From Candidatus Iainarchaeum sp. (lineage in GTDB: Archaea; Micrarchaeota; Micrarchaeia; Anstonellales; Bilamarchaeaceae): DNA of 47,599 nt. The notes under the pieces were generated by a model. It saw only the letters and a list, made by a program, of their open reading frames with translations. It was not told where the DNA came from and ran no database searches. The stretch spans positions 1 to 47,599 of the forward strand of contig JAQTOF010000001.1 in the NCBI GenBank assembly GCA_028713495.1. The letters are read 5' to 3'. Each line of letters opens with the position of its first letter. The first letter of the stretch is position 1. The translations under genes and the position numbers were made by a program. Of the stretch, positions 10,610 to 42,426 are shown in pieces.

Positions 10610-10616
10610 AGTAACA

Positions 10617-11417: not shown

Positions 11418-11427
11418 TGGTCACACC

Positions 11428-11910
11428 TCATCTCTTTTTCTTGGCCTTGGCTCTCGGCTTCTTTTTAGCCAGCCTTTCAGGCCTTTCCTCTGGCTCCTCG
11501 GGTTCCTCTGGCTCAGGCATCGGCACCGGAGGCGGAGGCTTGGGTGGCTGAGCCATGCCCAGTTCCACGGCCGGCGTGTATCTGAATAACGGCAGGGCCA
11601 GGACGAACAGGGCCACCACGAACGCTGATACCATGGCCCAGGCATCGAACCTGCCTGAGCTTATGATGGAATATAGCAGGAGGATGATGACGAGGCCTGC
11701 GAATATGCTTGCGAAAAGCATTGTCCTCTCGAAGGAACGCCGCCTCTCCATGTGCTTCGGCAGATCGGCCTCGCATACGTAGAGCTCGTTCATCTGGGCC
11801 ACTCCGAAAAATTTCTTTATGGCCCTTATGGTCCGGATGATGCGATCCTCCTTGATCGGGACCGCGGCCTTGTTCTCCACATTCGCTTGGCAAGCGACAC
11901 AGACTTTCAT
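11428..11910 (-). CDS. Small membrane protein: N-terminal Cys motif (CVAC..C), two TM helices, Pro/Glu/Lys-rich tail
   Basis: 160-aa ORF with TM segments MLFASIFAGLVIILLLYSII and AMVSAFVVALFVLALPLF. Tail is PPKPPPPVPMPEPEEPEEPEE..KKKPRAKAKKKR. Confidence 0.7.
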   Translation of the reverse strand: MKVCVACQANVENKAAVPIKEDRIIRTIRAIKKFFGVAQMNELYVCEADLPKHMERRRSFERTMLFASIFAGLVIILLLYSIISSGRFDAWAMVSAFVVALFVLALPLFRYTPAVELGMAQPPKPPPPVPMPEPEEPEEPEERPERLAKKKPRAKAKKKR

Positions 11911-11921
11911 GGCAAATCCCT

Positions 11922-13505: not shown

Positions 13506-14329
13506 CAGACCACACTCTCTTCAAGCTCTTGGGCAGTGACCGGGAAGAACTTCTCCCATTCGAAGCACTTGAGCATCTCGTCGCCAGTTAGCTGGACGAC
13601 TTCCACATTCAGGGCGTTCGCCAGCACGGTCCTCAGCTCGTTGGACTGGGTGCGCGCCGCGGCTATGGCCGCATCCTTGCTCAGGCCGACCGCAGTGGTC
13701 TGCGCATAGGCGATGATGCCCATGGGCTTCACGCCCTTTATCAGGCGTGTGAGCTCAGCATCCCTGATGGTGACTTCCTTCTCGAACTTGTCCATCTTGA
13801 GCACATCAGGCTGGGGCTTGTCCCTTTCCCTGGCCAGCCTAAGCTGGGCTTCTGCTCTCTTGGTCTCGATCATCTTCCTTTTCTCGCCCACGTCCTCCAC
13901 GAAAAGCATGTAGGCGATCTTTGTGACGTATTTGATGTTGGATATAGCCCTTTCGAAGAACTGCGTGTAGGCGATATTCTCCTCAGCAGACTTCTCGGTC
14001 GCTGACTCGAATATCTTCAGGCCCATGAAGGCAGATGCATAGAAGACGCCGTTGACGTTCTTGACTATGACGTCCTGGGATGGCGGGATCTCATAGCCTG
14101 TGTCGGTCATCATGACGATCTTGGCCCTTTCAGTGACAAGGGGTATGAACAGATAGCCATAGCGCCAGAAGAGCACGCCGAACAACGAGCCCAGTCCGGC
14201 CAGTAGGCCGCCTATAAGGGCGAATGGGCCGACGCCTGCGGTGCCTCCGATGAAGGCGAGCAGGGCTCCCACAATGCCGACAGCTATAGAAGCTATTGTA
14301 TACGTCTTCGCGCCACCAGTGATAGCCAT
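13505..14329 (-). CDS. Membrane protein with two N-terminal TM helices plus ~200-aa soluble domain; first gene of the ATPase operon
   Basis: 274-aa ORF with IASIAVGIVGALLAFIGGTAGVGPFALIGGLLAGLGSLFGVLFW, followed by a mixed alpha/beta region. Confidence 0.8.
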   Translation of the reverse strand: MAITGGAKTYTIASIAVGIVGALLAFIGGTAGVGPFALIGGLLAGLGSLFGVLFWRYGYLFIPLVTERAKIVMMTDTGYEIPPSQDVIVKNVNGVFYASAFMGLKIFESATEKSAEENIAYTQFFERAISNIKYVTKIAYMLFVEDVGEKRKMIETKRAEAQLRLARERDKPQPDVLKMDKFEKEVTIRDAELTRLIKGVKPMGIIAYAQTTAVGLSKDAAIAAARTQSNELRTVLANALNVEVVQLTGDEMLKCFEWEKFFPVTAQELEESVV

Positions 14330-29357: not shown

Positions 29358-30203
29358 TCATTGGCAGACGTGGGTTTCCTGGTTGCAGACTTCGCCCTGC
29401 ACGCAGTCGGCGTTGTCATTGCAGAAACCGCTCTTGGCGCTGCAGTAATGGCCGCTGTCGCAGACCTGCCAGCTGCCGCAATCGGCGTTGGTCCCGCAGC
29501 GGTCCTTGCCAGGTTCGCAGCGGTGGCTGGTGCTGCTGCAGAATTCCCACTCATTGCATTCATTGTCAGCCAGGCAGTAGCCCTGGCGGGCGATGCATTT
29601 CTTGGAAACCTGGTCGCAGCGTGACCAGGCCTTGCAGTCCTCGTCGTTGATGCAGTAGCCCACTTTCGGCTGGCAGAAATGGGTCTTCAGCTCGCAGACC
29701 TGCCAGGTCTCGCAATCTCCGTCCAGATCGCACCTGCCTTCCAGCATGTAGCACCGCTTGCTGACGATGTCGCATTTCTTCCATGAATCGCAGTCGGTGT
29801 CAGAGAGACAGTAGCCAGGCGCAGGGCCGCACTGGTGGGTGGCCGGGTTGCAGAATTCGAAAACAGGATCGCATTGAGAATCCGAATCGCAGTAGCTGGC
29901 TGCGGCTCTGCAATACTGCTCTGTGTCGCACACCTGCCAGTTCTCGCAATTGGCGTTGCTCCTGCATCGGCCCTCCTGATAGACGCACAGATGCGTCCTC
30001 TCCGCGTCGCAGCGGGTGAGGTTGTCGGTGCACTGCTCGTCCAAGTCGCAGTAGCCGGCCATGGTAGCGCAGCTTCCGCTGCTTGTATTGCAGGATTGCC
30101 AGGCCTCGCAATCAGCATTGCTCTTGCAAGCGGCCTCTCCTGTGCTTCCGCACCCTGCCAAAACCAATGCCAGCGCTATAAAACCGAGTAAGAGGATCCT
30201 CAT
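29358..30203 (-). CDS. Lipobox protein made of ten tandem 4-Cys repeats
   Basis: Signal plus lipobox LALVLAGC, then 10 units of C-x5-C-x5/6-C-x5/7-C-x6 (motif C-x-[SDN]-[DN]-x-[DEQN]-C-x2-W-x2-C). I counted 41 Cys in 281 aa by hand. Confidence 0.85.
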   Translation of the reverse strand: MRILLLGFIALALVLAGCGSTGEAACKSNADCEAWQSCNTSSGSCATMAGYCDLDEQCTDNLTRCDAERTHLCVYQEGRCRSNANCENWQVCDTEQYCRAAASYCDSDSQCDPVFEFCNPATHQCGPAPGYCLSDTDCDSWKKCDIVSKRCYMLEGRCDLDGDCETWQVCELKTHFCQPKVGYCINDEDCKAWSRCDQVSKKCIARQGYCLADNECNEWEFCSSTSHRCEPGKDRCGTNADCGSWQVCDSGHYCSAKSGFCNDNADCVQGEVCNQETHVCQ

Positions 30204-30227: not shown

Positions 30228-30893
30228 TTATAAGCGTTGCAGGATTCTGATGAGGCCGCTGATATCCTTCAGGCTGTGATGGGCCCGTGTCGGTATTCTG
30301 GAATGCTTGCCTGCCAGCACACGGACCGTGGCGATGCCGATCTTCCTGGCTGGCGCGATGTCAGCATCCTCACGGTCGCCGACCATCATGCACTCTTCTG
30401 GTCTTGCGCCAAGACGCCTGAGCACCTTGCGGTAGAACGAGACGCTCTTTTCAGTGCCGAGCTCCTCTGACACGAAAACGCCGTCAAAATAGAGCGCTAT
30501 GCGCAGGCGGATGAGCTTGTCCCACTGCTTCACCGCATCGCCGTTCGTGGCTATATAGAGCTTGTAGCCGGCTTCCTTGAGCCTGAGCAGGGTGAGGGGC
30601 ACCTTCGGGAAGGGCTGGATGGCGGTCTTGGTGTCATGGTAGGCGGCCACTGCGGCTGCCGTGTAGCGGGCAGGATCCTTTATACCGAGCTGTTTGCACA
30701 GGTCATCGAAATGGCCGCCATAGTTGGAGCCTTTCCTGTCGATTATCCTGGTCAGCTTTGCCATGATGGCGTTCTGATCGCCTGGCAGGCCCATGCTTAT
30801 CATGGCGTTTATAGCGTTCTTCCTGGCCAGGGTGGAGAATTCGGTGGATGGGAAAAGCGTGTCGTCTATGTCGAAAAGGATGTATTTGATCAT
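30228..30893 (-). CDS. HAD-superfamily hydrolase
   Basis: Motif I FDIDDTLFPS and motif IV MVGDREDADI. I chose the ATG at 30893, where homology begins. Confidence 0.85.
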   Translation of the reverse strand: MIKYILFDIDDTLFPSTEFSTLARKNAINAMISMGLPGDQNAIMAKLTRIIDRKGSNYGGHFDDLCKQLGIKDPARYTAAAVAAYHDTKTAIQPFPKVPLTLLRLKEAGYKLYIATNGDAVKQWDKLIRLRIALYFDGVFVSEELGTEKSVSFYRKVLRRLGARPEECMMVGDREDADIAPARKIGIATVRVLAGKHSRIPTRAHHSLKDISGLIRILQRL

Positions 30894-30937
30894 GAAGGAT
30901 ATGCGTAGAAAGAAAATAAAATAGAGAGGGAAGACAA

Positions 30938-31255
30938 CTAGCCGGAGCGGCCTTCCTTCGGTATCTCGGCCGGTACTGGGAGGATGCACCCGCATTCGTC
31001 TCCTGATGCGCCGACTTTCACGTTGGACATGTTGACCGGGTTGTCGAGCTTTGTGGTTTGTCCGCCGCAGCTGGCAGAGATGGCCCCTCGCTGCGAAGGA
31101 ACGCCTTCAGGGCTCACGAAGAAGCTGGCTGACAAGCTTATATCGTCAGAGCAGCCGAGGTCTTTTCTCAGCTGTGATGCGTCTACAGAACGGAGCAGAC
31201 GGCCGACCAGCGGACCTGGTTTGACACGGCTCGTGTCGCAGTCAGACGGGGTGCA
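30938..31255 (-). repeat. 318-nt duplicated 3' coding module, copy 1
   Basis: Aligns without gaps to 33815..34132 at high identity by eye. Confidence 0.8.
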
Positions 31256-32257
31256 TTTAGGGGGTTCTGGCTCCGGCACCTTAACTTGTATACATTCGCA
31301 CTCCGCACAGACATAGCCCTCTCCGCAGCCACCCCGGGGTCTTGTCGGGGATGTCGTGGATTCATCGCACTCCTCTGTGGGCTGCGCTATGCCGTCGTTG
31401 CATGTCTTGGACGGTTTTACGCAGTTGCACCGCACGCAGCGCTCGCCCTTATCGCAGCCTCCGCGCGGCTTGCCGCTGCTTGGGTCGCATTCCTCGCCCG
31501 GGTTTATGCCTTCGCTGCCGCAGAGATCGTGGTAGAGGTTCGAGCAGAAACATGGCTCAGGCGGAAAATCTGCGCAGTCAGGCAGGGTCACATCAATCGT
31601 CTCGCTGTAGTCATTGACCACAGTGAAGAGATCGCCACCTTCAGTGCGGTAAGCACCAGGTTGGGCATAGAGCTTTTCTATCTCCTCCTGGGTACGCAGC
31701 CTTTTCCTAGTGTTAGGGTTCTTGACTAGCTCCGGAAGGGATACCTTCTCCCTGGTGAGCAAAGGCGCTTCCTGGCCACGCCTGGCGCATGGATCCGCTT
31801 TGACCCTCGCCATTATGCAGTCCGGAGAATTCTCGTCCTCCAGAGGAAGCTTGATGAACCTGCCGTCAGTGTACGTATCCCTGAACTCCTGCAGCAGGTT
31901 GCCTGCAGGATCCTTGAGCTCGGACTTTTCGTCAGTAGTATCGCAGACGTTATCTCCCCTGTAGCCGTCTTCCTTGGAATAGTTCTGATTCTTGACAGGC
32001 TTACCGCTGCTGTCCAGCAGCACTTTGCCGGTCCGTATATCACGTTTGTATGGATGGCCTTCGATGTCGGCCATGAATATGCCGTCGGCTTTGATAGCTA
32101 TGGGTTCCACCTTCGGCTCGGTGTGGCGGAACAAAAGGACCGCGGCGGCTGCGGCAACCACGACTACCGTGGCGACTCCAGCTACGATACGGCTACTGGT
32201 CCTTGAGCTTTTAAACGTCTGGCTTCTCTGCGCCCTCTGTTCGTGTTCCAACATCAT
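30938..32257 (-). CDS. N-terminally anchored extracytoplasmic Cys-rich protein, paralogue 1 (shared C-terminal ~105-aa module)
   Basis: TM segment IVAGVATVVVVAAAAAVLLF. Contains C-N-D-G-x4-E-E-C-D-type Cys repeats. The C-terminal module is about 80% identical to that of 33815..34705. Confidence 0.8.
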   Translation of the reverse strand: MMLEHEQRAQRSQTFKSSRTSSRIVAGVATVVVVAAAAAVLLFRHTEPKVEPIAIKADGIFMADIEGHPYKRDIRTGKVLLDSSGKPVKNQNYSKEDGYRGDNVCDTTDEKSELKDPAGNLLQEFRDTYTDGRFIKLPLEDENSPDCIMARVKADPCARRGQEAPLLTREKVSLPELVKNPNTRKRLRTQEEIEKLYAQPGAYRTEGGDLFTVVNDYSETIDVTLPDCADFPPEPCFCSNLYHDLCGSEGINPGEECDPSSGKPRGGCDKGERCVRCNCVKPSKTCNDGIAQPTEECDESTTSPTRPRGGCGEGYVCAECECIQVKVPEPEPPKCTPSDCDTSRVKPGPLVGRLLRSVDASQLRKDLGCSDDISLSASFFVSPEGVPSQRGAISASCGGQTTKLDNPVNMSNVKVGASGDECGCILPVPAEIPKEGRSG

Positions 32258-32267
32258 AACATCAACC

Positions 32268-33710
32268 TCATGATCGTGATCTGTTGCGGTCCAGCTGCAG
32301 ATATTTGTTGCGGTCCAGCAGCAGGTAATCGCCCCTTATGATAGACACATTCTCCTGTCCGCGCATTCCGCCGCCCATCGCGAACTCCAAACGTATCTTC
32401 TTGGCGCGGTAGAACGCACTGCCATACTCCTGTGTCCTAAACATTTCGTCCAGCTTGCGCCTGAGCAATGGGTCGCTGTCGAAGAGCGACTGGAGCACGG
32501 CGGGCCTGTCTTCTGGGCTTGCGCCAAGGTAAGGATTTAGCCTGGCCAGCACGACATCCGTCTCTGCTTCGGTAAGCAGCCCCCCCATCCTATTCACCAT
32601 GCGATTCGACAGTTTGGCTTCCTGCATGGCCGCGACAAAGACCTTCGCATCCCTGCTGAGGATGTCAAGAGCATCGAAAAGCGTTTCGTCTCCCCTCAGC
32701 TCCTCCTGAATGGCTCTGGAAATGGCTGGGCCCCGCCCTGCGACCTTGGCTATAGATGCTAGCTTTCTGATCGCATAGTCGTGCGCCTCATCGAGCCTTT
32801 CCGCGCTTATGCCGGCATAATGTTTAGCCATCCTTCTCTTGGTCAGGTAATTGGAAATCATGCTGGCGAGGAAGCCAAGGCCTGTGAGGCCATAGAAAAC
32901 TGATATGACGCCTTTCACGCTGTCAAGCGGAGGGAGGTGCAGTTTGGTTTCCCAGATGTCTCTTATGACTGCGGAGACATCTTTATGGGACTCCATCACA
33001 CCGTTGATTCCTGTGGCGATGACCTGGAATGCGTCTGTCGAGAACAAGGCATAGCTGACCATGCCAATGGTCGCAACGGTCCAGGTAAACGGACTGGTGA
33101 GGAACCGCTTCACACGGCTAGGGCGTTTCAGCGGTGTTGCTGGACGCGGGAGCACTACGGTTGCAAGAGGTAGTGGGGCTAGATTAGGCGCTGGAGCAGC
33201 AGGAACTGCTTCGACAGCGGGATCGCCGAGGTCCACTGTCCCTGGCGCTGCAGATGCTTGCCTGGCCTCGATGACACTAAGAACGTTATTGATGCCGTCG
33301 TCGATGGAATCATCAGCTTTTGGAGCATCTGAGATATCTACATCATCTGAAGCGAACTCGGTCGCAGCGCGGGCATCTGCGCTATCCACATTGTTGCCTG
33401 GCGCCGGAGATGGAGCGAACAGTTCCCGCAGTAAGCCTTTTTTGGTGATTGCCATGCGAAGGGGCGCCAGCTCAGGGTTAGTTGCGAAATCCTTTACTTC
33501 GCTAATGCCGCGCTCTCCACAGGCCTTTTTGGCAGATGCCAGGAGTTCGTCCCTGCCCATCTGCATGAGAGAATCAAGGCTATAGGCGACCTTTAGGGCA
33601 GCAGGCGGTTCACTGAGCGGAGCTTCCTGTGATCTGACTGCTGCCGTGGGCTTGACCCCATTGGCTCCATCAGGCTTGCCCTTACGTTTTCTGTCTTCCA
33701 ATACACCCAT
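32268..33710 (-). CDS. Orphan membrane protein: basic/disordered N-region, two central TM helices, helical C-domain
   Basis: 480-aa ORF with TM segments FTWTVATIGMVSYALF and VISVFYGLTGLGFLASMI. GGTGGG Shine-Dalgarno, and TATA-like TATTTAAAAAC about 60 nt upstream. Confidence 0.75.
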   Translation of the reverse strand: MGVLEDRKRKGKPDGANGVKPTAAVRSQEAPLSEPPAALKVAYSLDSLMQMGRDELLASAKKACGERGISEVKDFATNPELAPLRMAITKKGLLRELFAPSPAPGNNVDSADARAATEFASDDVDISDAPKADDSIDDGINNVLSVIEARQASAAPGTVDLGDPAVEAVPAAPAPNLAPLPLATVVLPRPATPLKRPSRVKRFLTSPFTWTVATIGMVSYALFSTDAFQVIATGINGVMESHKDVSAVIRDIWETKLHLPPLDSVKGVISVFYGLTGLGFLASMISNYLTKRRMAKHYAGISAERLDEAHDYAIRKLASIAKVAGRGPAISRAIQEELRGDETLFDALDILSRDAKVFVAAMQEAKLSNRMVNRMGGLLTEAETDVVLARLNPYLGASPEDRPAVLQSLFDSDPLLRRKLDEMFRTQEYGSAFYRAKKIRLEFAMGGGMRGQENVSIIRGDYLLLDRNKYLQLDRNRSRS

Positions 33711-33814
33711 CTTTGCCCACCGCTTTTAAATGTTTTAGTACGCATATATTTGTGTAACTAAGGGTTTTTAAATATAACGATAAGGACAGAGAAGAAAGAA
33801 AAGATGAAAAAGAA

Positions 33815-34132
33815 TCAGCCGGAGCTGCCTTCCTTAGGTATCTCAGCTGATGTCGGGAGGATGCACCTGCATTCGCCGCCTGGTGCGCCGACTTTCACGT
33901 TGGACAGGTTGGCCTTGCTGTCGAGCGCTGTGGTTTTTCCTCCGCAGGTGGCAGAGATAGCCCCTTGCTGTGAAGGAACGCCTTCAGGACTCACAGAGAA
34001 CTTGGCTGACAGTCCTATATCGTCAGAGCAGCCGAGATCTTTTCTCAGCTGTGATGCGTCCACAGAACGGAGCAGACGGCCGATCAGCGGTCCTGGTTTG
34101 ACACGGCTCGTATCGCACTGTGCTGGGGTGCA
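33815..34132 (-). repeat. 318-nt duplicated 3' coding module, copy 2
   Basis: Aligns without gaps to 30938..31255. Confidence 0.8.
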
Positions 34133-34705
34133 TCCCTGGACCGGAGCTTCGACTGGCGGTTTTTCGCGTCGTTCTCTCCGATGGCCTGCCTCGGCCTTCG
34201 CCTCTTCCTTCGGGCAGTCAGCCTCGCAGTAGTTCGTGTCTGCCTTGTCGCATGATTCGGTTATCGTGACCAGACCCCAGACATAGACGCCTGACTGGTC
34301 TGTGACTTTGACCATCGCAGGATAGGTTTTGCCTTGATCCACCTCGCCGTTGCCGCAGTGGAAGTCCACAGGGCAGTTCAAAGCGGTCTCATGAGCCTGC
34401 TGCTTGCCGTCGCCGCATGTGCCGCAGTCTTCAGGAGCGAACCGTGAGATCGTGTCGTGCTCTCCCTTATTTATCTCGCACTTGCCGTCGCCATGGTAGG
34501 GCGCAGGACAAACTTCCACGGTCGTTTGTTTCTCCTTGACGATCGGCTCGACCTCGGGTCCGCTGCACTTCTGGAACATCAATAGCGCTCCTACAGCCAG
34601 TGCGCTCACACCGATCGCACCCGCAGCGAATTTGCTGGAGCTCGTTGGCTTCCTGCCACCATTCCCTGCACTAGCATTTTCATGTCTCAATCCTTGCATA
34701 TCCAC
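33815..34705 (-). CDS. N-terminally anchored extracytoplasmic Cys-rich protein, paralogue 2
   Basis: TM segment FAAGAIGVSALAVGALLMF and a Cys-rich middle. The C-terminal module is shared with 30938..32257. It starts 1 nt after the upstream gene. Confidence 0.8.
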   Translation of the reverse strand: MDMQGLRHENASAGNGGRKPTSSSKFAAGAIGVSALAVGALLMFQKCSGPEVEPIVKEKQTTVEVCPAPYHGDGKCEINKGEHDTISRFAPEDCGTCGDGKQQAHETALNCPVDFHCGNGEVDQGKTYPAMVKVTDQSGVYVWGLVTITESCDKADTNYCEADCPKEEAKAEAGHRRERREKPPVEAPVQGCTPAQCDTSRVKPGPLIGRLLRSVDASQLRKDLGCSDDIGLSAKFSVSPEGVPSQQGAISATCGGKTTALDSKANLSNVKVGAPGGECRCILPTSAEIPKEGSSG

Positions 34706-34706
34706 A

Positions 34707-35957
34707 TCACCTTGTTAGTATTTTTTCCTCTTTCAATTCTTTTGCTCTTTGGCGAACAGAAACCAAAACCAACGCAGCCGACACAGTGTACACAACCGCG
34801 ACGGCCGGTACGAGCGCAGCGCCAAGGAACTCTCCCACACCAGGAGCGATCAGCGCGGCCCCAGCCACTGCAGTAACGCAGGCGCCAGCTATGATTTGGC
34901 GCGCATATTGCTTCAACTTGGAAGGTGTTTCGGCTTTATTTTCCTCGGGCGCCTTGGCTTTCTTTGCCTTGGCCTTTTTGACCTTCTCAGGCACTTCCAC
35001 AATGACCTCAACCTCTTTCTGGGGACCAGTCACTTTCGTGCTTGTGATGGTGATTGTAGCCTCGCCTGCCTTGAACGTTCGGGTATCTCCAACCCTGAGC
35101 GCGAACTTTTCATCGATGTTCTTGCCAGTCAGCCTGAATTCCTGGCCATAGACGCCGCTCGGGCGGATATATGTCAGCTTGTATCCACTGAAGAGGCCGT
35201 TATCGCCTGGGTTCATGAACGCTATTATCTTTGTGGTCTTCTTGGAAGCTGCGTCTGCGACAGGTTCTGTCACGGCTTCTGCCGGGGCTTCTGCCACGGC
35301 TTCTGCCGGGGCAGCAGGGCCTAAATCGAAGAATGGATGGCCAAGCGATGCAGCCGCTATAGCTGGTGTGGCAAGATCGAACGGTACTGAAGCAGGCGCA
35401 GCGGCTTGCTGAGCTGCAGGCGCAGAAGCCTCAGGTTCTCTAGGTATACCAGCAAAAATACTGCCTGGACCTTCAAGCTCGAAAGTCCCTACGGGTTCAC
35501 CTTCCAGAAGATGATCATCTGGGTAATCCGGACCTTTCACGATGGTTCCTTCTGGTGCCGCTACGAGTGTGGATAGGTCGTCATCACCATCTTCTTCTGG
35601 TGCCCTTGTGAGTGTGGATAGTTCATCTTCTTCCGGCCTTGGCGCAGCTGGAATCACAGGTGGAGTGCCAGGACCTCTAGAGGCAGGCTCAGCCGCGCGC
35701 ACTGGCGCTGCCGCGCTAGCTACTTGAGGAACGGCCGGCGTTCCTTCATCTGCCGGGGCTACTGCTGGTAGCGCTGGCGGAACTGGCGGCTTGGCTGCAG
35801 CAGGCGCTGTGTCTACGAGAGGATTTGGAAGATCAAGGCGCATAGCTGCAGGCGCTGCTGAAGTTGCCACAGCTGGCTTAGCAGCCTCTGAAGGCTTACC
35901 CTCTCCTTTCTCTTTCGCAGCTTTCCTTCGCATTGCGTCTTCAACATATCCCATCAA
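34707..35957 (-). CDS. Pro/Ala-rich protein with small beta domain, Lys-rich linker and C-terminal TM hairpin (tail-anchored)
   Basis: 416-aa ORF with C-terminus IIAGACVTAVAGAALIAPGVGEFLGAALVPAVAVVYTVSAALVLV. It has a 4-nt overlap with the upstream gene. Confidence 0.7.
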   Translation of the reverse strand: MMGYVEDAMRRKAAKEKGEGKPSEAAKPAVATSAAPAAMRLDLPNPLVDTAPAAAKPPVPPALPAVAPADEGTPAVPQVASAAAPVRAAEPASRGPGTPPVIPAAPRPEEDELSTLTRAPEEDGDDDLSTLVAAPEGTIVKGPDYPDDHLLEGEPVGTFELEGPGSIFAGIPREPEASAPAAQQAAAPASVPFDLATPAIAAASLGHPFFDLGPAAPAEAVAEAPAEAVTEPVADAASKKTTKIIAFMNPGDNGLFSGYKLTYIRPSGVYGQEFRLTGKNIDEKFALRVGDTRTFKAGEATITITSTKVTGPQKEVEVIVEVPEKVKKAKAKKAKAPEENKAETPSKLKQYARQIIAGACVTAVAGAALIAPGVGEFLGAALVPAVAVVYTVSAALVLVSVRQRAKELKEEKILTR

Positions 35958-37153
35958 GCATCCCCTCCGACTTCATTCCAGTTAATGATATTTTCGTTGA
36001 CGAGCTTATTTGCCCTTGCAACGGCCAGCTCTACTCTCTGTTCAAACTCTCCTTTCTCTGGCTCGGTGAGTGGTTCTTCGGAGATGCCATAGAATTCTAT
36101 CAGTGAGGCAACGACCACTTCGCGGCTCTTGGAGAACGTCTCCAATATTTCCCGAGTCTCCTGCACGCCGCATTCTTTGGCTGCAATCTTCACGTCTTCT
36201 TTTGTAAGTTTAGGCTTTACGAGAAGACCGGCTAATGCCCTGCGTTTTGTATCTGCATGAAGGGGATTCGCCTCAGGGCGTTTCGACTCGAGGGCTTCTT
36301 TCACACCGGCAGTCAGCTGCGGAATGACCGGCGCATCCCCGAATGGCTCCAAGGTGGCTTTCTCATCCTTTCCGAACAGCTGGACACGGAGACCTGAGAC
36401 CTCTCCTTCAGCGACCGTTACTTTGTCTAGGAGGCCAGGCTGGGCAGGCGTTTCGCCTTCTGCTTCTGTGCCGAAGACGACTGCTACCAAGCCAGGCTGG
36501 GCAGGCGTTTCGCCTTCTGCTTTTTTACCTATAAGCACATCTGCTATTCCATTTACACTCTCTTCAAGCCAGTTAGCACGATCCAGGAGACCTTTCTTAG
36601 CCTCTTTGCCTTCTTCTGCTTCTCTGCCAACGAGTTCCGCTGTGAACTCTTGGGCGGTGTCATCCAGATATTTAACAGTTCCTTTGAGCGCCTCGAGCTC
36701 CGCCATTATAGGTGCAATGGCAGCATTGACCTGCGCCTTGACTATCTTTTTCACGTCCTCAGGCGTAACGCCGCGGGCCCTTGGGGCCGGTAGTGGCACA
36801 CTCGCCCGTGGGGTAGCTGAAGGTGCATGTCCTGCTTGAGCACCTGCTGCGGACGCTCCAGCGCTTTGTTCATCATGAACATCTTCCATTTCATCAAGAT
36901 CGAGCTCTCCGAAATCGCTTTCATCTGGTGCACCTTCGCCTCTTGCATCCAGCTCGAGAGTAGACTTTCCCATGCTAGCGGCGACCGCTTTCTGTACGGC
37001 CGGCCTGGCGATTGTCGCTGCTGTGTCGGGCGGATCAACTCCTTGTCGACCTTCTGCAAGCGGACCAGCGCGAGGCTTCGCACCTTGGCCTTCCGATGCC
37101 CTTCTCCTTTGTTCAATAAGTTCCTTGATAGTTGGACCTGCCATCATAATCAC
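35954..37153 (-). CDS. Orphan acidic/disordered protein with 19-aa tandem duplication and UBA-like C-terminal helices
   Basis: 399-aa ORF with AEGETPAQPGL repeated, and a C-terminus (EDVKIAAKECGVQETREILETF..VVVASLIEF) of UBA/NAC-like pattern. It has 4-nt overlaps on both sides. Confidence 0.7.
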   Translation of the reverse strand: MIMMAGPTIKELIEQRRRASEGQGAKPRAGPLAEGRQGVDPPDTAATIARPAVQKAVAASMGKSTLELDARGEGAPDESDFGELDLDEMEDVHDEQSAGASAAGAQAGHAPSATPRASVPLPAPRARGVTPEDVKKIVKAQVNAAIAPIMAELEALKGTVKYLDDTAQEFTAELVGREAEEGKEAKKGLLDRANWLEESVNGIADVLIGKKAEGETPAQPGLVAVVFGTEAEGETPAQPGLLDKVTVAEGEVSGLRVQLFGKDEKATLEPFGDAPVIPQLTAGVKEALESKRPEANPLHADTKRRALAGLLVKPKLTKEDVKIAAKECGVQETREILETFSKSREVVVASLIEFYGISEEPLTEPEKGEFEQRVELAVARANKLVNENIINWNEVGGDA

Positions 37154-38265
37154 CCTTTCTTTCCGAGTTTGAAGCTCGGGTCTTCTATGGCCTTTGCCTC
37201 CTCTTCGTTTAGTCCTGCGGCCAGCGCAACCAACTGAATTTTCTGGTCAATAGCAGCAAAAGCTTCAGTCACGGCCGTGACAAGATCAGTATATTTTAAT
37301 TCCAGCCCTTTGGCCAGTGCAAGAGCTTGCTTTGCGATGGGTCCCTTGCCCAGGGCTTCGTCAAATTCCGCAAGTACTCCTTCCTCTTCGTCCAGATCAT
37401 CAGTGCCTGGCCTCGGTGTGGGTTTGTCCCCTTCCCTTGCCCTGCGCACGACTTCGTCGAGGCCAAGCGGAGCCGCTGTCCGTGGAGGCGGAGGGGGGCT
37501 TATTGAGGTCCTGACTTCCGCAATCTCGCGGTTAGCAGTATCTATCCTTGCATTCGCGCCTTCCACCGCTTCTCTAGTGTATGTGTGCACTTCCTCTACC
37601 AGTTTCCCTGCAGTAGCGATAAGGTCTGTAGCATGCTCTGCGTCTGCTGAAGCTTTTTCAGCCAATCCCAACGCCTTTTCGACTTCTTTGCCGAAAGCAT
37701 CAACTGCATGGCCAAGCTCTCTCAGTTTGCCAGCGAGTTCATCCACGCGCCCATCAGTCTCTTTCAGGCCATCCGCAACCTTGCGGTCAGTCTTATCCAA
37801 TGCCGTCTGTGTGCTGGATGCGACTTCCTCGACTTTTTCAGCTGCGGTATTGGCAGTATCTACAGCACCCTGCGCGGTCTGACATGCTTCAGATGCCGCG
37901 CCAAGCGCTTGCTCGGCTTTGCTGTTTGAATGAGCAGCGGTCTCTCTTGCGTCCTGGGCATCCCTTTTCACGCCTTCAACTTCCTCCACTGCTTTGGCGG
38001 CCGTTGACTTGGCGCCCTCGGCCAGTTGCACTGCAGCAGCCGCCCTTGTCCTTATGGGATCTATTGAACCGCCCAGAGCTTCCGCGGACTTCTCAGCGGC
38101 TATGCCTCTCTCTTCGAGAATAACCAATCCTTCGGCCAGAGCTTCTCCAAGCTCTCCGCCGACAACCTTCTGAAGACGAGGAACGACTGTGTCCTTCACT
38201 GATTTGCGTGCGCCTGCAGCGCCGTTAGCCTTGCCATCCTTCTGAACTTCTACCACCCATATCAC
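37150..38265 (-). CDS. Ala/Glu-rich long helical (coiled-coil/apolipoprotein-like) protein
   Basis: 371-aa ORF with GAGGTGA Shine-Dalgarno and TATA-like TTTAAATATATATA about 55-70 nt upstream. Confidence 0.7.
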   Translation of the reverse strand: MIWVVEVQKDGKANGAAGARKSVKDTVVPRLQKVVGGELGEALAEGLVILEERGIAAEKSAEALGGSIDPIRTRAAAAVQLAEGAKSTAAKAVEEVEGVKRDAQDARETAAHSNSKAEQALGAASEACQTAQGAVDTANTAAEKVEEVASSTQTALDKTDRKVADGLKETDGRVDELAGKLRELGHAVDAFGKEVEKALGLAEKASADAEHATDLIATAGKLVEEVHTYTREAVEGANARIDTANREIAEVRTSISPPPPPRTAAPLGLDEVVRRAREGDKPTPRPGTDDLDEEEGVLAEFDEALGKGPIAKQALALAKGLELKYTDLVTAVTEAFAAIDQKIQLVALAAGLNEEEAKAIEDPSFKLGKKG

Positions 38266-38362
38266 CTCATATGAATATGTCTATTGTGTTGTAATCTATA
38301 CTTTAGTGGGTATATATATTTAAATGTTTGCATTGGTAAATAAACGTGGTTTTTCATAGCTT

Positions 38363-40663
38363 TCACCGGCTCATGGCCCCTGATGCATAGCGAAGGATGA
38401 ACGACTTGTCATCATTCTTGCCTTCCCTGGGTTCGCACGCATATCCGAACTCAGCGCATCTGACCGGATACGATGCATCTGGATCCGGCCTGGACTCTGC
38501 GAGCGTAATAGCATTGTCCCTAGCCACATTCAGGTTGCCATCCGTCTCGTGTATGAGCAATGGACATTCATGATCAACGCAGACCGGCTCCAGGCCGTCT
38601 GAATTAACGCTTATCACATCATCAGACATGAGCTCGAATGGGATGAAACCGAGATCATCCATACCGTTTATCTGCAGATATTCGATAGAACTGCCCAGGA
38701 CTGAAGTGACGATGTTCCCCTGGGTCCTTAGAAATTCCCGCATGTCCGGGTGATTTACCGGAGATCCACGCCTCCTGAAGTCGTATTCCAGCGTATGGCT
38801 CACAGTCTTGAAGACGACTGCGTCTCCGCGTATCACGCGGCATTCGCTGTCGCCGCAGTGCACGGCATAGAATTTGTTGCCCTGCTGGAATGCTACCACC
38901 GCGGTGGTGCCCATGTCATTTCTCCTGCGGTTGTTGCCCATATCCTTCAGATCATCCTTTTCCGCTATCTGCTCCATTGTTATGGCCATATCCGCGATAA
39001 TGAGGACGCGCCTAACGTCTTCCACGGTTTTTATCCATCCGGCCAAAGCCGATATGGCGATTACCTGCTTGGCCATCGCGCTGGCCCTGGCCCCGCCTGC
39101 ATGGCCGCCCATCCCGTCAAAGACAGCGTCCAGCATTATCGGCCCTTCAGGAGAGTCGATCATCACGGAAATGATAGTATCCTGATTGACTTTGGCATGG
39201 TTTCCATCCTTGCCCTTCTTGGCGACTGTGACTCCGTAGCCTTCGAGGCATCTTGCAGTTATCCTCTCTGCAGGCAGGCCGATGAATTCCATGACCGTGT
39301 CCCATTCGCTCTGCATCTGGACCGACTCGCGGAGGTTATCGAAACACGTGAGAGGTCCGTATAGCCGCATGATTTCTGGATAGTACTTTTTGGCGCCGCT
39401 GGCCGTGTCGGTCTTTTTCATCAGGATGTCGGACAACGGACGCGGATCAAAGCCCGGGATGCATCCTTGCCTAAGCACTCCTGGGAAAAAGGCCGCTTCC
39501 TCTTTGCTGTAACCCTCGGTAGGGCGATACCTCAGCTTGTGCACCAGGTCGCCCAATGTGAGCAGGTCTGATCTGCCTTTCCTCCAAAGGTTCCTTATGT
39601 CATGAAGAGTAATATTTTCCCGCTCCAGCGCCCATTTTGTGAAATCCTCGATGTGCTGGGGTCTGAGAGCTGCTGCATCCGCCATCCGCAGCTGCGATGC
39701 GATTACTTTCCTCTGGGATTTGGTCAGATTATTCGGGTTCAACAGCGCCTGATACATCTGCCCTGGCGTCGGCACAGCCAGACCCAGTTTAGTGTAGAGG
39801 ATCCTCTTGGCGATTGAGAACTGCTCCAGGGAATCTGACAGGAGCTTCGGGTCAGCAGCCAGCGCCTCATCGCTCCATAAGGAAGATACGTGATTCCTCA
39901 TCCTCAGTTCGCGGACACCCGGATGCATTTTTATGAACTTGGATAATGCGGCTGAATCCAAGGAACCTCCGGCAACAGCGGATACGAGGTCGTGTTCATG
40001 GTCGCTGAGTGATTCCATGATTGCCTCTGGCCTGTGGTCTGCCACGATTTTGACCGCAAGCTCGACTGCCTTCTTATGTGAATAGCCTTTGAGCAGTTCA
40101 TTCACTGCTTCGCGATAGAAAGGGTGGAGTTCCCCTATTTCAGTCCCCTTATGCCTCGTGAATTTCGTTCCTATGAACTCGCCGAGCTGGCTCTTCACCC
40201 TCTCGTCGCACGCCATCCAGTAGTAATTGACTAACGTCCTGGCGACCCGCCTTACGAGCATGTTACCTGCTGATTCGTAGGTCTGGCATTGCTGCCTACC
40301 ATCTACGACGCCGCAGGGTTGTTCGATATGGCGCGGATAATGCCAATCCAACAGTTTCTCAAGCTCAGGCTGCATAGCCACGTTCGGCAGCGGGAACGGT
40401 ATGCCTGCTATTACCTCTGGCTCGGGTGCTTCGGCTTGCGCGGGTTCATGTGCCTCTTCTTTAGGTTCCCCGGCATGCACTTCTTCACGCATCGGGGCCG
40501 CATGAACGCCCCATCGTGCAGCGACAGAACGTGCGAGCTCCGAGGGATCCTTGTTTTTGCCAAATTTTGACATAAGAGACTGCGCTGACACTGATGCGAT
40601 ATGTTTCCTGCATTCCAGGACGCATTTCATGAATGGTGAGTTAACCTGAGCCAAAAAGGACAC
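38363..40663 (-). CDS. Fusion protein: ~470-aa unknown N-terminal region plus C-terminal PP2C-type Ser/Thr phosphatase domain
   Basis: PP2C motifs DAVFDGMGGHAGGARAS, MGTTAVVA, HCGDSE, NSDGL and RDNAIT. The start is uncertain: GTG at 40663 or ATG at 40630. Confidence 0.8.
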   Translation of the reverse strand: MSFLAQVNSPFMKCVLECRKHIASVSAQSLMSKFGKNKDPSELARSVAARWGVHAAPMREEVHAGEPKEEAHEPAQAEAPEPEVIAGIPFPLPNVAMQPELEKLLDWHYPRHIEQPCGVVDGRQQCQTYESAGNMLVRRVARTLVNYYWMACDERVKSQLGEFIGTKFTRHKGTEIGELHPFYREAVNELLKGYSHKKAVELAVKIVADHRPEAIMESLSDHEHDLVSAVAGGSLDSAALSKFIKMHPGVRELRMRNHVSSLWSDEALAADPKLLSDSLEQFSIAKRILYTKLGLAVPTPGQMYQALLNPNNLTKSQRKVIASQLRMADAAALRPQHIEDFTKWALERENITLHDIRNLWRKGRSDLLTLGDLVHKLRYRPTEGYSKEEAAFFPGVLRQGCIPGFDPRPLSDILMKKTDTASGAKKYYPEIMRLYGPLTCFDNLRESVQMQSEWDTVMEFIGLPAERITARCLEGYGVTVAKKGKDGNHAKVNQDTIISVMIDSPEGPIMLDAVFDGMGGHAGGARASAMAKQVIAISALAGWIKTVEDVRRVLIIADMAITMEQIAEKDDLKDMGNNRRRNDMGTTAVVAFQQGNKFYAVHCGDSECRVIRGDAVVFKTVSHTLEYDFRRRGSPVNHPDMREFLRTQGNIVTSVLGSSIEYLQINGMDDLGFIPFELMSDDVISVNSDGLEPVCVDHECPLLIHETDGNLNVARDNAITLAESRPDPDASYPVRCAEFGYACEPREGKNDDKSFILRYASGAMSR

Positions 40664-40742
40664 CTGTTTGAGTACATCTACTTTTGTGTAAAGCTATTTT
40701 AAAAGGTTCCGCTTGATTCCACTCTTTCGGACAATCAGCGGC

Positions 40743-41459
40743 TCATGCGACAGGTACCTGGAAAAGCGCGCCGACAGCGTAGCCAGCAAGGGCCGCCGCT
40801 CCGCCGATCAGCATCATCTCGAGGCCGCCCTGGAGCCATTTGCCGGAGGTGAGCTGGCTCTTATATGCACCAATCAGGAAAAGCAGGCTGGATGACACCA
40901 CAACCGCAGCGGCCATGGAAGCTGCGATTGGCAGGAAGAAGAACGGGGCAAGGGGGACAAAGGAGCCGATTATGGCGCTGCCACCCACAAGGACGCCCTG
41001 CCAGAAAGGGGACATGGATGCGATAGGATTCGCCAGGTGGAGCTCTTCGCGCATCATGGTGTCCAGCCACACCCTTTTATCTGAGCATATCTTGTCAACG
41101 ACATCCTTGAGGAGCTTGCCAGAGAATCCCTTGTTCTTGTATATGTCCTCTATCTCCTTGCGTTCGGCCTCCGCAAGATTGTCCATCTCGTATTTCTCCC
41201 GTTTCACCTCGGAATCGTAGTGCTCCTGTTCTGCGCGGGAGGATGTATATGCGACCGCGGCCATGCTTATGCTCTCTGCGAATGTCGCGGCAAGACCGGC
41301 GAGGAGGACTATGCTGGTGGAATGGGTAGATACCGCCACACCGAGGATTATTCCTAGCACATTGACTATGCCGTCCTGGCTGCCCAGGATGATATTGCGG
41401 AGTAGCTGGCCCCTCCCGCTGCGGTGCTTTTCGGCATGCACTATTGCTTTGTCCGCCAT
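40743..41459 (-). CDS. VIT1/CCC1-family iron/manganese transporter
   Basis: ILGSQDGIVNVLGIILGVA, a central cytoplasmic acidic helix region and C-terminal TM helices. Confidence 0.85.
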   Translation of the reverse strand: MADKAIVHAEKHRSGRGQLLRNIILGSQDGIVNVLGIILGVAVSTHSTSIVLLAGLAATFAESISMAAVAYTSSRAEQEHYDSEVKREKYEMDNLAEAERKEIEDIYKNKGFSGKLLKDVVDKICSDKRVWLDTMMREELHLANPIASMSPFWQGVLVGGSAIIGSFVPLAPFFFLPIAASMAAAVVVSSSLLFLIGAYKSQLTSGKWLQGGLEMMLIGGAAALAGYAVGALFQVPVA

Positions 41460-41694: not shown

Positions 41695-41798
41695 TTTCTA
41701 ATTTTATTACCATCGCTTCCATGTCTTTATGCGGTTATGATGATAAGAGGTATTATTGATTGGTGATAGGAACGTCATTGCTGAACCGCACTGATGAT

Positions 41799-42326
41799 AT
41801 GGAAAAGAAGACCGTGGGCATCCTGCAGATCGCGTTCGCTGTCGCTATAGCTGCGGCAGTGCTCTATTTCTCTGCAGACATAGCGTCCCTCGGCACCTAT
41901 GGATACATCGGCGCTTTCCTGATAGCGCTCCTGAGCTCCGCCACCATATTCTTCCCTGCGCCCGGGTGGGCGGTGGTGGTGGCGATGAGCGCCACCCTCA
42001 ATCCGATAGCCCTTGGGGTTGTGGCTGGGATAGGATCTGCCATCGGGGAGCTCACAGGATACGTGGCTGGCGATGGCATACGTGGCATGATGAATGATCG
42101 GATAAAGGAGATGAAGAAGATAGAAGCGCTGGTGCAGAGATACGATGTGCTCGCCATATTCGTCCTTGCTTTCATCCCTAACCCGTTGTTCGATGTGGCT
42201 GGATTGGCGGCAGGCGGACTGAAGATCTCCTGGTGGCGCTTCGTCCTGGCCTGCGCAGCAGGAAGGGTACTGAGATATATCCTCCTCGCGATGATCGGCG
42301 CATTCGCGGTCAGTTTGCTGACTTGA
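41799..42326 (+). CDS. DedA/VTT-domain (SNARE-associated) membrane protein
   Basis: YIGAFLIALLSSATIFFPAPGWAVVVAM and GIGSAIGELTGYVAG motifs. I chose the ATG at 41799 over the TTG at 41760. Confidence 0.8.
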   Translation: MEKKTVGILQIAFAVAIAAAVLYFSADIASLGTYGYIGAFLIALLSSATIFFPAPGWAVVVAMSATLNPIALGVVAGIGSAIGELTGYVAGDGIRGMMNDRIKEMKKIEALVQRYDVLAIFVLAFIPNPLFDVAGLAAGGLKISWWRFVLACAAGRVLRYILLAMIGAFAVSLLT

Positions 42327-42351
42327 AAAAGAGCTAACGCTGAGAAAAAAA

Positions 42352-42426
42352 TAGCGGGGAGTGGATTTGAACCACCGATCTCTGGGTTATGAGCCCAGCG
42401 GGAACTCCAAGCTTCCCTACCCCGCT
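42352..42426 (-). tRNA. Initiator tRNA-Met (anticodon CAU)
   Basis: Reverse complement AGCGGGG...CCCCGCT-A gives A1:U72. Anticodon arm CTGGG-CTCATAA-CCCAG has three G:C pairs next to the loop. T loop is TTCAAAT, and an oligo-T tract follows. Confidence 0.9.

Follow-up and report, generated by a model that had tools for sequence, protein, structure and literature searches.

Do seven consecutive genes in a small archaeal genome encode the parts of one system, or do they only happen to stand side by side? This question is raised by a stretch of 47,599 nucleotides (the window) from Candidatus Iainarchaeum sp. (contig JAQTOF010000001.1, assembly GCA_028713495.1, positions 1 to 47,599), in which seven consecutive open reading frames (ORFs), all on the minus strand, occupy 30938-40663 and are headed by a fusion protein with a PP2C phosphatase domain. 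We found homologues of all seven genes in relatives, which removes the label of orphans that a first-pass annotation, made from the sequence alone, had given them, and the gene order and protein identities indicate that the block is inherited vertically while evolving far faster than its neighbours. About an even chance is given to the reading that these genes form a vertically inherited, lineage-specific cluster encoding one membrane-associated assembly, the cytoplasmic face of which would be under serine/threonine (Ser/Thr) phospho-control. The ORFs, with their coordinates, lengths and junctions, are all as the first-pass annotation gave them:

38363..40663, minus strand: gene 1, PP2C fusion, 766 aa for the longest ORF (755 aa in the NCBI annotation, which starts at the ATG at 40630)
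37150..38265, minus strand: gene 2, family A, 371 aa
35954..37153, minus strand: gene 3, family B, 399 aa
34707..35957, minus strand: gene 4, family C, 416 aa
33815..34705, minus strand: gene 5, family D, 296 aa
32268..33710, minus strand: gene 6, family E, 480 aa
30938..32257, minus strand: gene 7, family D paralogue (D2), 439 aa

Conservation and setting of the block

Families A to E were defined by BLAST clustering, family hidden Markov models and hhalign. The synteny evidence comes mostly from contigs that carry members of the gene 1 family, and pattern scans of GTDB and of metagenomes gave 1 and 3 loci. The paired locus labels L002/L006, L009/L010 and L013/L012 are counted together; L007 is Ca. 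Bilamarchaeum dharawalense, and Bilamarchaeum belongs to the order Anstonellales (PMC8561730).

The order VIT1, PP2C, block, HAD hydrolase, 281-aa Cys-rich protein, AP-endonuclease-2 and ~298-aa protein was found in the window, L002/L006, L003, L007, L009/L010, L013 and L014. L001 keeps the first five block genes, after which its contig ends, and L015 keeps the genes from PP2C through AP-endonuclease-2 with no VIT1 upstream. VIT1 adjoins the long PP2C gene, or lies one gene off, in 7 loci (L001, L002/L006, L003, L007, L008, L009/L010 and L014), and wherever the sequence of a relative extends far enough, the HAD and 281-aa genes stand directly downstream of the block. Inside the block, the order PP2C-A-B-C-D was present in the window and in six distinct loci of relatives: L001, L009, L013/L012 and L014, as far as C before the locus ends in L008, and partly in L007; most of these relatives are labelled Micrarchaeota. 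The E-D2 pair occurs in the window, L009 and L013 only.

All seven genes of L009 are collinear with those of the window, and the identities between the two are 42% for PP2C, 41% for A, 35% (partial) for B, 33% for C, 49% for D, 41% for E and 46% for D2, in contrast to 87% for VIT1, 78% for HAD and 77% for the 281-aa Cys-rich protein. Across the relatives, the flanking housekeeping proteins are 57-88% identical, and on these values the organism of the window is probably close to the clade of Bilamarchaeum, whatever its NCBI label. The conserved order, combined with identities of 33-50% in the block against 77-87% in the flanks, argues for vertical inheritance and for evolution faster than that of the flanks.

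In L002/L003, similarity to A-E was not detected for the proteins at the positions of A to C, which measure 576-590, 1138-1176 and 276-346 aa, and two D genes remain. In L015, two of three proteins showed no hhalign similarity to A-E, and the third, of 498 aa, was A-like at 65% probability. Given this divergence, the A-B-C core is not claimed for these loci.

The first-pass annotation had stated that the block is unlikely to be a system if its genes are not syntenic in relatives, if they match viral structural modules or if the low-complexity ORFs lack coding signatures. The gene order is kept in relatives, the low-complexity ORFs show conservation at the protein level between genomes, and no viral structural module was matched (PHROGs, IMG/VR, phage tblastn and BFVD), so none of the three was found.

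The possibility that the block is an integrated virus or a mobile structural module is accordingly scarcely credible. A run of uncharacterised same-strand genes can resemble viral DNA when it encodes coiled-coil and Cys-rich proteins, gene 2 gave weak matches to PHROG tail proteins (E 0.002 or weaker), and a tRNA-Met lies 1.7 kb away. However, the same housekeeping genes border the locus in six or more divergent genomes, and the PHROG matches correspond to coiled-coil composition; apart from these weak matches, PHROGs returned only a PP2C-like family without assigned function. No integrase, capsid or packaging gene was found in the block, scans of IMG/VR with genes 6 and 7 and a phage tblastn with gene 7 gave nothing, INPHARED gave no match, and BFVD returned PP2C only. 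The G+C content within the block (0.51-0.57) equals that of the flanks and is similar in the rest of the contig, and the block is thus no compositional island; neither a variable insertion site nor foreign composition was observed, the housekeeping flanks being the same in relatives. As judged from synteny, the provirus reading is effectively refuted.

Beyond PP2C and coiled-coil noise, no viral, defence, Pfam, NCBIfam or PDB family matches were obtained for the block, and A-E appear to be five new protein families without known relatives. A defence system was considered and rejected, as PADLOC gave coiled-coil noise only, namely matches of gene 2 to the JetC and DndD arms (E 2e-4 or weaker). 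In the NCBI annotation, gene 1 is a 'protein phosphatase 2C domain-containing protein' (100% identical to the window phosphatase), and genes 7 (PHF60_00210) and 5 (PHF60_00220) are each a 'hypothetical protein'.

Genes 2 to 5 are tightly joined: genes 2/3 overlap by 4 nt (37150-37153), genes 3/4 by 4 nt (35954-35957), and genes 4/5 are separated by 1 nt at 34706. Coupling of successive genes at 0-5 nt recurs in relatives. Wider gaps separate genes 1 and 2 (97 nt) and genes 5 and 6 (104 nt). The first-pass annotation had placed TATA and Shine-Dalgarno signals before 38265 and 33710, and A/T-rich TATA-like boxes and GGTG-type Shine-Dalgarno-like sequences were seen there by eye, including GGTGGG just 5' of the gene 6 ATG at 33710. 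The promoter-like boxes divide the block into three predicted units. The following signals were read from the sequence:

40695..40704, minus strand: A/T-rich TATA-like box TTTTAAAATA, ~30-65 nt upstream of the candidate starts of gene 1
38311..38326, minus strand: TATA-like box CATTTAAATATATATA within the 97-nt gap of genes 1-2
38260-38267, minus strand: GAGGTGAT directly before the GTG start codons of gene 2
33711..33814, minus strand: gap of genes 5-6, with a T-rich tract after the gene 5 stop and then A/T-rich TATA-like boxes

The immediate neighbours of the block are:

40743..41459, minus strand: VIT1-family membrane protein, upstream flank, 65-88% identical to relatives
30228-30893, minus strand: HAD hydrolase, downstream flank, the homologues of which begin at an internal Met and not at 30995
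29358-30203, minus strand: 281-aa Cys-rich DUF5885 protein (Pfam 37.6 bits), downstream flank, with a lipobox-like LAGC

The longest HAD ORF (start 30995) overlaps gene 7 by 58 nt and has an extra hydrophobic N-terminus. Since HAD homologues start at the internal Met (MIKYILFDIDDT, 30893), the real start is probably 30893, which would leave a 44-nt T-rich gap downstream of gene 7. The 281-aa protein contains 14.6% cysteine in repeated C..W..C modules, and its LAGC follows a signal sequence. It stands directly after the HAD gene every time and is 60-77% identical in relatives; it is thus far more conserved than the Cys-rich proteins of the block itself.

The window is a complete contig of a metagenome-assembled genome, and outside the block it is ordinary archaeal housekeeping, with genes for eIF2-gamma, a GT4 glycosyltransferase, adenylosuccinate lyase, an HD hydrolase, PAC2, an M24 peptidase, GMP synthase, an AlaX-like protein and a VTT/DedA protein, and three tRNAs. 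A second conserved group of uncharacterised genes lies on the minus strand at 8048-14329 of the window, beside adenylosuccinate lyase. Its proteins are of 853 aa, of 266 aa (with weak likeness to EAP30/Vps36 winged-helix proteins), of 160 aa, of 527 aa (a HerA/FtsK-like ATPase; DUF87, AAA_10) and of 274 aa. The same six genes are directly upstream of the PP2C gene in L015.

The PP2C fusion and the kinases of relatives

The C-terminal phosphatase domain that the first-pass annotation assigned to gene 1 is real. Two Pfam models scored above their gathering cut-offs (PP2C_2, PF13672, 30.3 bits against 24; PP2C, PF00481, 28.5 against 20.3), and an NCBIfam Stp1-type match of 3e-19 covered residues 486-725. 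The threshold of the Stp1/IreP equivalog (NF033484) was missed, at 69.4 bits against a cut-off of 230. All motifs quoted earlier are present, but 'DNAIT' is not catalytic, and the last motif is GKNDDKS. The features of gene 1 are:

38381..39211, minus strand: PP2C (PPM) catalytic domain, with the metal-binding motifs NQD, DGMGGH, GTT, GDSE, SDGL and GKNDDKS intact
39101-39127, minus strand: DGMGGH motif (Pfam/NCBIfam and alignment)
38402-38422, minus strand: GKNDDKS motif, holding the invariant last-motif aspartates D740/D741 (755-aa numbering, as below)
39221..40417, minus strand: family-specific N-terminal region of ~390 residues, mostly alpha-helical in the model
39893-39928, minus strand: conserved N-region motif MHPGVRELRMRN

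Among 65 homologues, D484, D505/G506, G593/D594, D678/G679 and D740/D741 showed no variation or a conservation of 90% or more. Activity of the enzyme is very probable, as predicted from the invariance of its metal-binding aspartates. The AlphaFold2 model built with these 65 homologues in the alignment had a predicted local distance difference test score (pLDDT) of 90.3 and a predicted template modelling score (pTM) of 0.83; a model from a 3-sequence alignment (pLDDT 40) was not usable. Using Foldseek, we found the C-terminal half to match Stp1, PstP and tPphA (2pk0, 1txo and 2j86) with template modelling scores (TM-scores) of 0.73-0.79 and E ~1e-9, and the whole model matched PP2C proteins only, both in PDB and in BFVD. 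The model thus places gene 1 in the PP2C beta-sandwich fold.

The first ~470 residues, said earlier to be unlike anything recognised, have no Pfam match, and profile searches with the N-region returned no Pfam or PDB sequence match. In the model, this region is nearly all alpha-helix with two small beta-hairpins, and the high pTM suggests that it packs rigidly against the catalytic domain. A second conserved motif, LLTLGDLVHKLRY, is present beside the one listed above. No transmembrane segment was found in gene 1 by hydropathy. A profile of window residues 88-478 and two homologues, used in an exhaustive search of 1.84 billion cluster representatives, returned 87 proteins, 39 of them at E<=1e-30. 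In nearly all 87, a core of the N-region of ~260 residues is followed directly by the same PP2C subfamily, and every named member is from Micrarchaeota. The family members range from ~550 to 2,111 aa in length and have variable N-terminal extensions, with ankyrin repeats in some. One relative (L004, 992-4789) encodes a PP2C-family protein of 1,265 aa with a long N-terminal extension and a ~345-aa C-terminal extension, the latter without a Pfam match. A likeness of the N-region to the FliG C-terminal domain or MgtE-N was rejected: a 5-sequence profile matched 3hjl_A at E=0.01, the match was lost with a 24-sequence profile, and no Pfam FliG or MgtE match was found across 24 family members.

PPM-type phosphatases are uncommon in archaea. 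With this helical N-region, the PP2C domain has an architecture that is new for a familiar enzyme family, and our literature searches returned no description of the cluster or of this PP2C family.

The first-pass annotation had recognised no kinase or FHA partner in the window, and we likewise found none there by tblastn with the kinases of relatives and by Pfam on 20 other window ORFs (a part of the total). The proposed link to phospho-signalling was strengthened by the relatives, as L008, L009, L011 and L012 carry one or two Hanks-type Pkinase genes by secDF, 3-6 kb upstream of the family PP2C. Between these kinases and PP2C, most of the four loci have a short PP2C-family paralogue and VIT1. 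In the L009 kinase, the kinase domain is joined by a hydrophobic segment near residue 355, read as transmembrane, and by a C-terminal region of ~150 aa, read as an ectodomain, that is PEGA-like by eye. FHA, PASTA and DivIVA domains were not found by Pfam and NCBIfam in the block or in 29 block proteins of relatives.

The short paralogue, which combines the N-domain with PP2C in 540-660 aa, was seen at L007 7293-8960, L009 4993-6675 and 7846-9825, L014 7086-8708 and L008 10001-11746. It usually lies beyond VIT1, between secDF and the long form, and was not found on the window contig. Upstream of VIT1, the window has a VTT/DedA gene and a tRNA-Met (41760-42426) where most relatives have secDF, kinases and the PP2C paralogue, which suggests that this genome was rearranged, with a breakpoint close to VIT1 on its upstream side. 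From this arrangement, the kinase neighbourhood appears to be either rearranged in this metagenome-assembled genome or located on another contig.

The proteins of genes 2 to 7

Genes 2 and 3 encode acidic proteins (both pI 4.8) without transmembrane segments. The gene 2 protein is Ala/Glu-rich and contains the following two features:

38110-38187, minus strand: conserved N-terminal motif of family A, VVPRLQKVVGGELGEALAEGL, from a comparison of N-termini
37480-38088, minus strand: continuous heptad segment of ~200 residues, from hydrophobic periodicity

The N-terminal consensus of family A is RLxxVLGGELGxxLAEGL. The hydrophobicity of gene 2 had a period of 3.54 with a power of 271, against a shuffle maximum of 48±10, and two orthologues behaved alike; we read the segment as an unbroken coiled-coil rod that would measure ~30 nm if fully helical. 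Orthologues are L009_b335 (41%) and L1_379 (35%), and the start of gene 2 may be the GTG at 38256. Gene 2 matched PF11839 (Alanine_zipper, Lpp/OprI) with 29 bits against a cut-off of 23.1, a result of its Ala-rich heptads; no signal peptide or lipobox was seen, and the NCBIfam Ala_zip_lipo cut-off was not reached (23.8 against 43). It also matched SMC coiled-coil models in Pfam and NCBIfam.

The gene 3 protein has a variable, disordered-looking N-terminal half and a C-terminal region of ~110 aa that is conserved in alignments; its homologues are L1_447, L009_b375, L008_b389 and L014_b463. The UBA-like C-terminus proposed earlier was not supported, as no UBA match at E<=0.1 and no Pfam domain was obtained. 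An exact duplication of 11 residues stands in its sequence, where the orthologues have a single related 'P..GL' unit:

36488-36520 and 36431-36463, minus strand: AEGETPAQPGL, 19 residues start-to-start

Genes 4 and 6 begin with an N-terminal basic module. In gene 4, this module is followed by a Pro/Ala-rich linker of ~220 aa, a small conserved region and a hydrophobic pair; in gene 6, it is followed by a variable region of ~200 aa and two hydrophobic segments.

34989-35231, minus strand: small conserved region of gene 4, from family comparison
34755-34895, minus strand: two adjacent C-terminal hydrophobic segments of gene 4 (residues 355-401) by hydropathy, read as a membrane hairpin
33006-33089 (weaker) and 32844-32912 (stronger), minus strand: hydrophobic segments of gene 6, by hydropathy
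32310-33113, minus strand: conserved core of gene 6, with both hydrophobic segments and a C-terminal part of ~190 aa

The hydrophobic pair of gene 4 had been noted in the first-pass annotation and was recovered by hydropathy. Basic residues flank it on both sides, which, by the positive-inside rule applied by eye, suggests a hairpin with both termini cytoplasmic; this fits better than the tail-anchored topology proposed earlier. Homologues of family C were found in L001, L007 (two copies), L008, L009, L013 and L014, and those of gene 6 are L009_b575 (41%) and L013_b640 (27%). By these sequence features, hydrophobic hairpins would fix C and E in the membrane, and their long, flexible linkers would lie in the cytoplasm.

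The likeness of C and E is confined to the N-terminal ~45 aa. With composition-preserving shuffles, residues 2-45 of the two proteins gave z=3.1 in the window (6/500 shuffles reached the score), z=4.2 in L009 with the C gene start corrected (2/500) and z=9.5 in L013 (0/500), and the module may be a short docking element, evolving together with a partner that C and E share. Similar N-termini had been claimed for three proteins, of 399, 416 and 480 aa; the claim held for the 416/480 pair, was marginal for 399/480 (z=2.5) and failed for 399/416 (z=0.4), and an N-terminal pattern matching these three only, among 114 ORFs, was defined post hoc. An origin of E-D2 by duplication of the whole C-D pair was rejected because hhalign found no global homology of C and E.

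Genes 5 and 7 encode the Cys-rich proteins. Gene 5 has a short cytoplasmic tail, one transmembrane anchor, an ectodomain with 16 Cys and a C-terminal domain, and gene 7 has one anchor and a larger ectodomain with 24 Cys. The single N-terminal anchors and the Cys-richness described earlier for the 296- and 439-aa proteins were borne out by hydropathy and composition, as was their paralogy, since the last 105 aa are 81% identical.

34574-34630, minus strand: transmembrane anchor of gene 5, by hydropathy
33818-34132, minus strand: C-terminal domain of gene 5, ~105 aa, by alignment
32129-32188, minus strand: transmembrane anchor of gene 7, by hydropathy
30941-31255, minus strand: C-terminal domain of gene 7, 81% identical to that of gene 5
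30908..31207 and 33785-34084, no strand assigned: 300-nt direct DNA repeat of 84% identity at the 3' ends of genes 7 and 5

Family D has 13 members in the fetched loci, with conserved CxxCGDG/CGNG-like cysteine motifs in the ectodomain, and orthologues of gene 7 are L009_b448 (46%) and L013_b462 (34%). No match of the family was found in Pfam, NCBIfam or PDB sequences. A TonB-C/AgmX-like or myxococcal Cys-repeat identity, suggested by eye, was rejected when Pfam, NCBIfam and PDB profile searches gave nothing significant; the Myxococcus-type repeat TIGR02232 reached 12.1 bits at best, in 1 of 12 members, against 20.8.

The N-terminal parts and the C-terminal domains of the D proteins have different histories. 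In the N-terminal parts, gene 5 is orthologous to L009 b256 and gene 7 to L009 b448. The C-terminal domains, in contrast, are most alike within each genome, with 81% aa identity and a synonymous divergence (dS) of 0.26 between window genes 5 and 7, 88% and 0.17 between L009 b256 and b448, and 42-52% with dS >1.2 between the window and L009. The 300-nt repeat begins at the domain boundary and extends ~30 nt beyond the stop codons. These bounds and the low dS within genomes form a signature of gene conversion, which appears to have been repeated, limited to the one domain, in two lineages. By dS comparison, concerted evolution was not seen for the D paralogues of L013 and L002/L003. From the concerted evolution of D and D2, their C-terminal domains would be expected to bind each other or to share a partner that co-evolves with them.

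The cytoplasmic tails of the D family (window 34631-34705 and 32189-32257; L007, L009 and L002/L003) are often Ser/Thr-rich beside Arg/Lys, as in GGRKPTSSSK, KSSRTSSR, SRSSESESRK and EKSSTRK. The tails resemble possible juxtamembrane phospho-acceptor sites, a pattern that the L013 members lack.

The D proteins bear on two further explanations. According to Gfrerer et al. (bioRxiv 10.1101/2021.04.28.441871), the S-layer of Micrarchaeota stands above a space of 20-25 nm, and its anchoring may need a second membrane-anchored protein. The block could thus be an S-layer organiser, in which D would span the ~20-25 nm pseudoperiplasm as an anchor or stalk and A, B, C and E would form the base. The proposal of a second anchoring protein, the N-terminal anchors and disulfide-rich ectodomains of 250-400 aa in D, and the lipobox-bearing Cys-rich protein that is always two genes downstream agree with such a role. 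We nevertheless consider it unlikely, as the block contains no S-layer domain or gene, and the cluster has not been demonstrated in the cultivated species of that study.

The first-pass annotation had suggested that the block could serve cell-cell contact. In an apparatus for contact with another cell or a host, the fast-evolving ectodomains would bind to the partner, and the phosphatase would pass on the signal. The block does evolve at a much higher rate than its flanks, gene conversion keeps the surface paralogues alike, and the organism belongs to DPANN, many members of which are ectosymbionts. Against this, no adhesin-type domains were found by Pfam in the block or in the relatives' proteins, much of the fast evolution is in low-complexity cytoplasmic proteins, and the core-genome synteny and single-copy layout are unlike variable adhesin loci. 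Nothing specifically supports a role in cell-cell contact, and since the block is strictly and vertically conserved in a core chromosomal neighbourhood, a housekeeping role in the envelope, morphogenesis or the S-layer fits equally. The host-contact explanation is therefore regarded as improbable.

A membrane-associated assembly and its likeness to known systems

Taken as one membrane-associated assembly, the block would work as follows. The A rod and acidic B would form a cytoplasmic scaffold, which C and E would tether to the membrane through their shared N-terminal module, and D and D2 would make up the outer part in the space beneath the S-layer. PP2C would reset phosphorylation on disordered, Ser/Thr-containing cytoplasmic segments, opposing the receptor-type Hanks kinases that are encoded a few kb upstream in relatives. 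We infer the physical association of the proteins, the docking by the N-terminal module and the relation of PP2C to its substrates. The layout of scaffold, membrane and Cys-rich proteins given in the first-pass annotation agrees with the sequence features, and its interaction part is plausible. In particular, the conserved tight coupling of the genes and the agreement of the layout make a membrane-associated complex plausible. Its biological output could be organisation of the envelope or S-layer, morphogenesis, division or host contact.

Several points weigh against this assembly. The flanking genes VIT1, HAD and AP endonuclease are as syntenic as the block itself, and in tiny, stable genomes a gene order can last even if the genes have no functional link. 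PP2C and D alone are universal, A, B and C being hardly or not similar in L002/L003 and L015. PP2C is separated from gene 2 by 97 nt and its own promoter-like box, and may thus be a general regulator; neither a kinase nor an FHA protein was found in the searched part of the window. The topologies come from hydropathy and the positive-inside rule only.

Some of these points favour synteny without a system, in which unrelated lineage-specific genes would be adjacent in a frozen neighbourhood and PP2C would be a general phosphatase. The equal synteny of the flanking genes, which extends to the 298-aa protein, the promoter-like boxes that cut the block into three units and the A, B and C genes that are not recognisable in L002/L003 all agree with it. 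However, the 4-, 4- and 1-nt junctions in A-B-C-D and the like coupling in relatives argue for co-translation, and the parts complement one another as a scaffold, tethers in the membrane and proteins with ectodomains. Within genomes, the N-terminal module of C and E also co-varies, and the block genes change at one fast rate, their identities being 33-50% where those of the flanks are 77-87%. We regard this explanation as doubtful, although it deserves more weight than the S-layer organiser.

Comparison with known systems places the enzyme in a common fold but in a family of its own. The catalytic domain of gene 1 has the same fold as Stp1, PstP, tPphA and PppA (TM-score 0.73-0.79), with the metal-binding Asp motifs kept. 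Gene 1 is not an orthologue of Stp1 (69 against 230 bits). It carries a helical N-region of ~390 aa foreign to Pfam and PDB sequences, and unlike the bacterial PP2Cs, its family is confined to ~87 representatives, the named ones all from Micrarchaeota. SpoIIE, RsbU and FEM-2 likewise have a non-catalytic N-domain on a C-terminal PP2C, and SpoIIE couples PP2C to the membrane-bound division apparatus. However, their N-domains show no sequence likeness to that of gene 1, gene 1 has no transmembrane segment, and the TM-score to FEM-2 (4jnd) was 0.38.

In the block, PP2C is linked in the genome to a coiled-coil protein and to bitopic membrane proteins with disordered cytoplasmic parts, and relatives carry receptor kinases nearby. 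By analogy, the block may work like the Hanks-kinase/PP2C control of Gram-positive scaffolds (StkP/PhpP with MapZ, DivIVA and GpsB; PknA/B-PstP-FhaA/B with Wag31 and CwsA), or in the manner of SpoIIE. Membership of these systems is rejected, since no DivIVA, FHA, PASTA or other homology to them was found; no kinase was found in the searched part of the window, the scaffolds show no homology, and the archaeon has no peptidoglycan. In composition, family C, with its anchor, long Pro/Ala-rich linker and terminal binding modules, resembles ZipA and TonB/TolA, and family A is Ala/Glu-rich and helical like domain II of TolA. In contrast to these tethers, the polarity of family C is reversed and its anchor is a hairpin; TonB_C, TolA and ZipA domains were not found, and archaea have no outer membrane.

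A more specific version of the assembly is tentative. The block could be an undescribed trans-membrane machine of Micrarchaeota-type DPANN archaea. In it, the ~30-nm rod and its acidic partner would dock, through the shared N-terminal peptide module, on flexible tethers anchored by hairpins; these would be coupled to disulfide-rich pseudoperiplasm proteins, the common C-terminal domain of which gene conversion would keep identical, and a dedicated PP2C with a new helical targeting domain would act as the switch, opposing receptor Hanks kinases. We consider this less probable than the assembly as first stated; if true, archaea would have a system for the cell envelope, division or contact that is new and lacks homologues anywhere else. 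As DPANN genomes are tiny, a ~10-kb block kept clade-wide in them is a large investment, and the cluster probably marks lineage-specific cell biology that annotation has missed. A clade-wide PP2C with a putative private targeting domain offers a way into archaeal Ser/Thr signalling, and the cluster supplies candidate proteins for the organisation of the membrane, pseudoperiplasm or S-layer in these cells, or for their contact with a partner.

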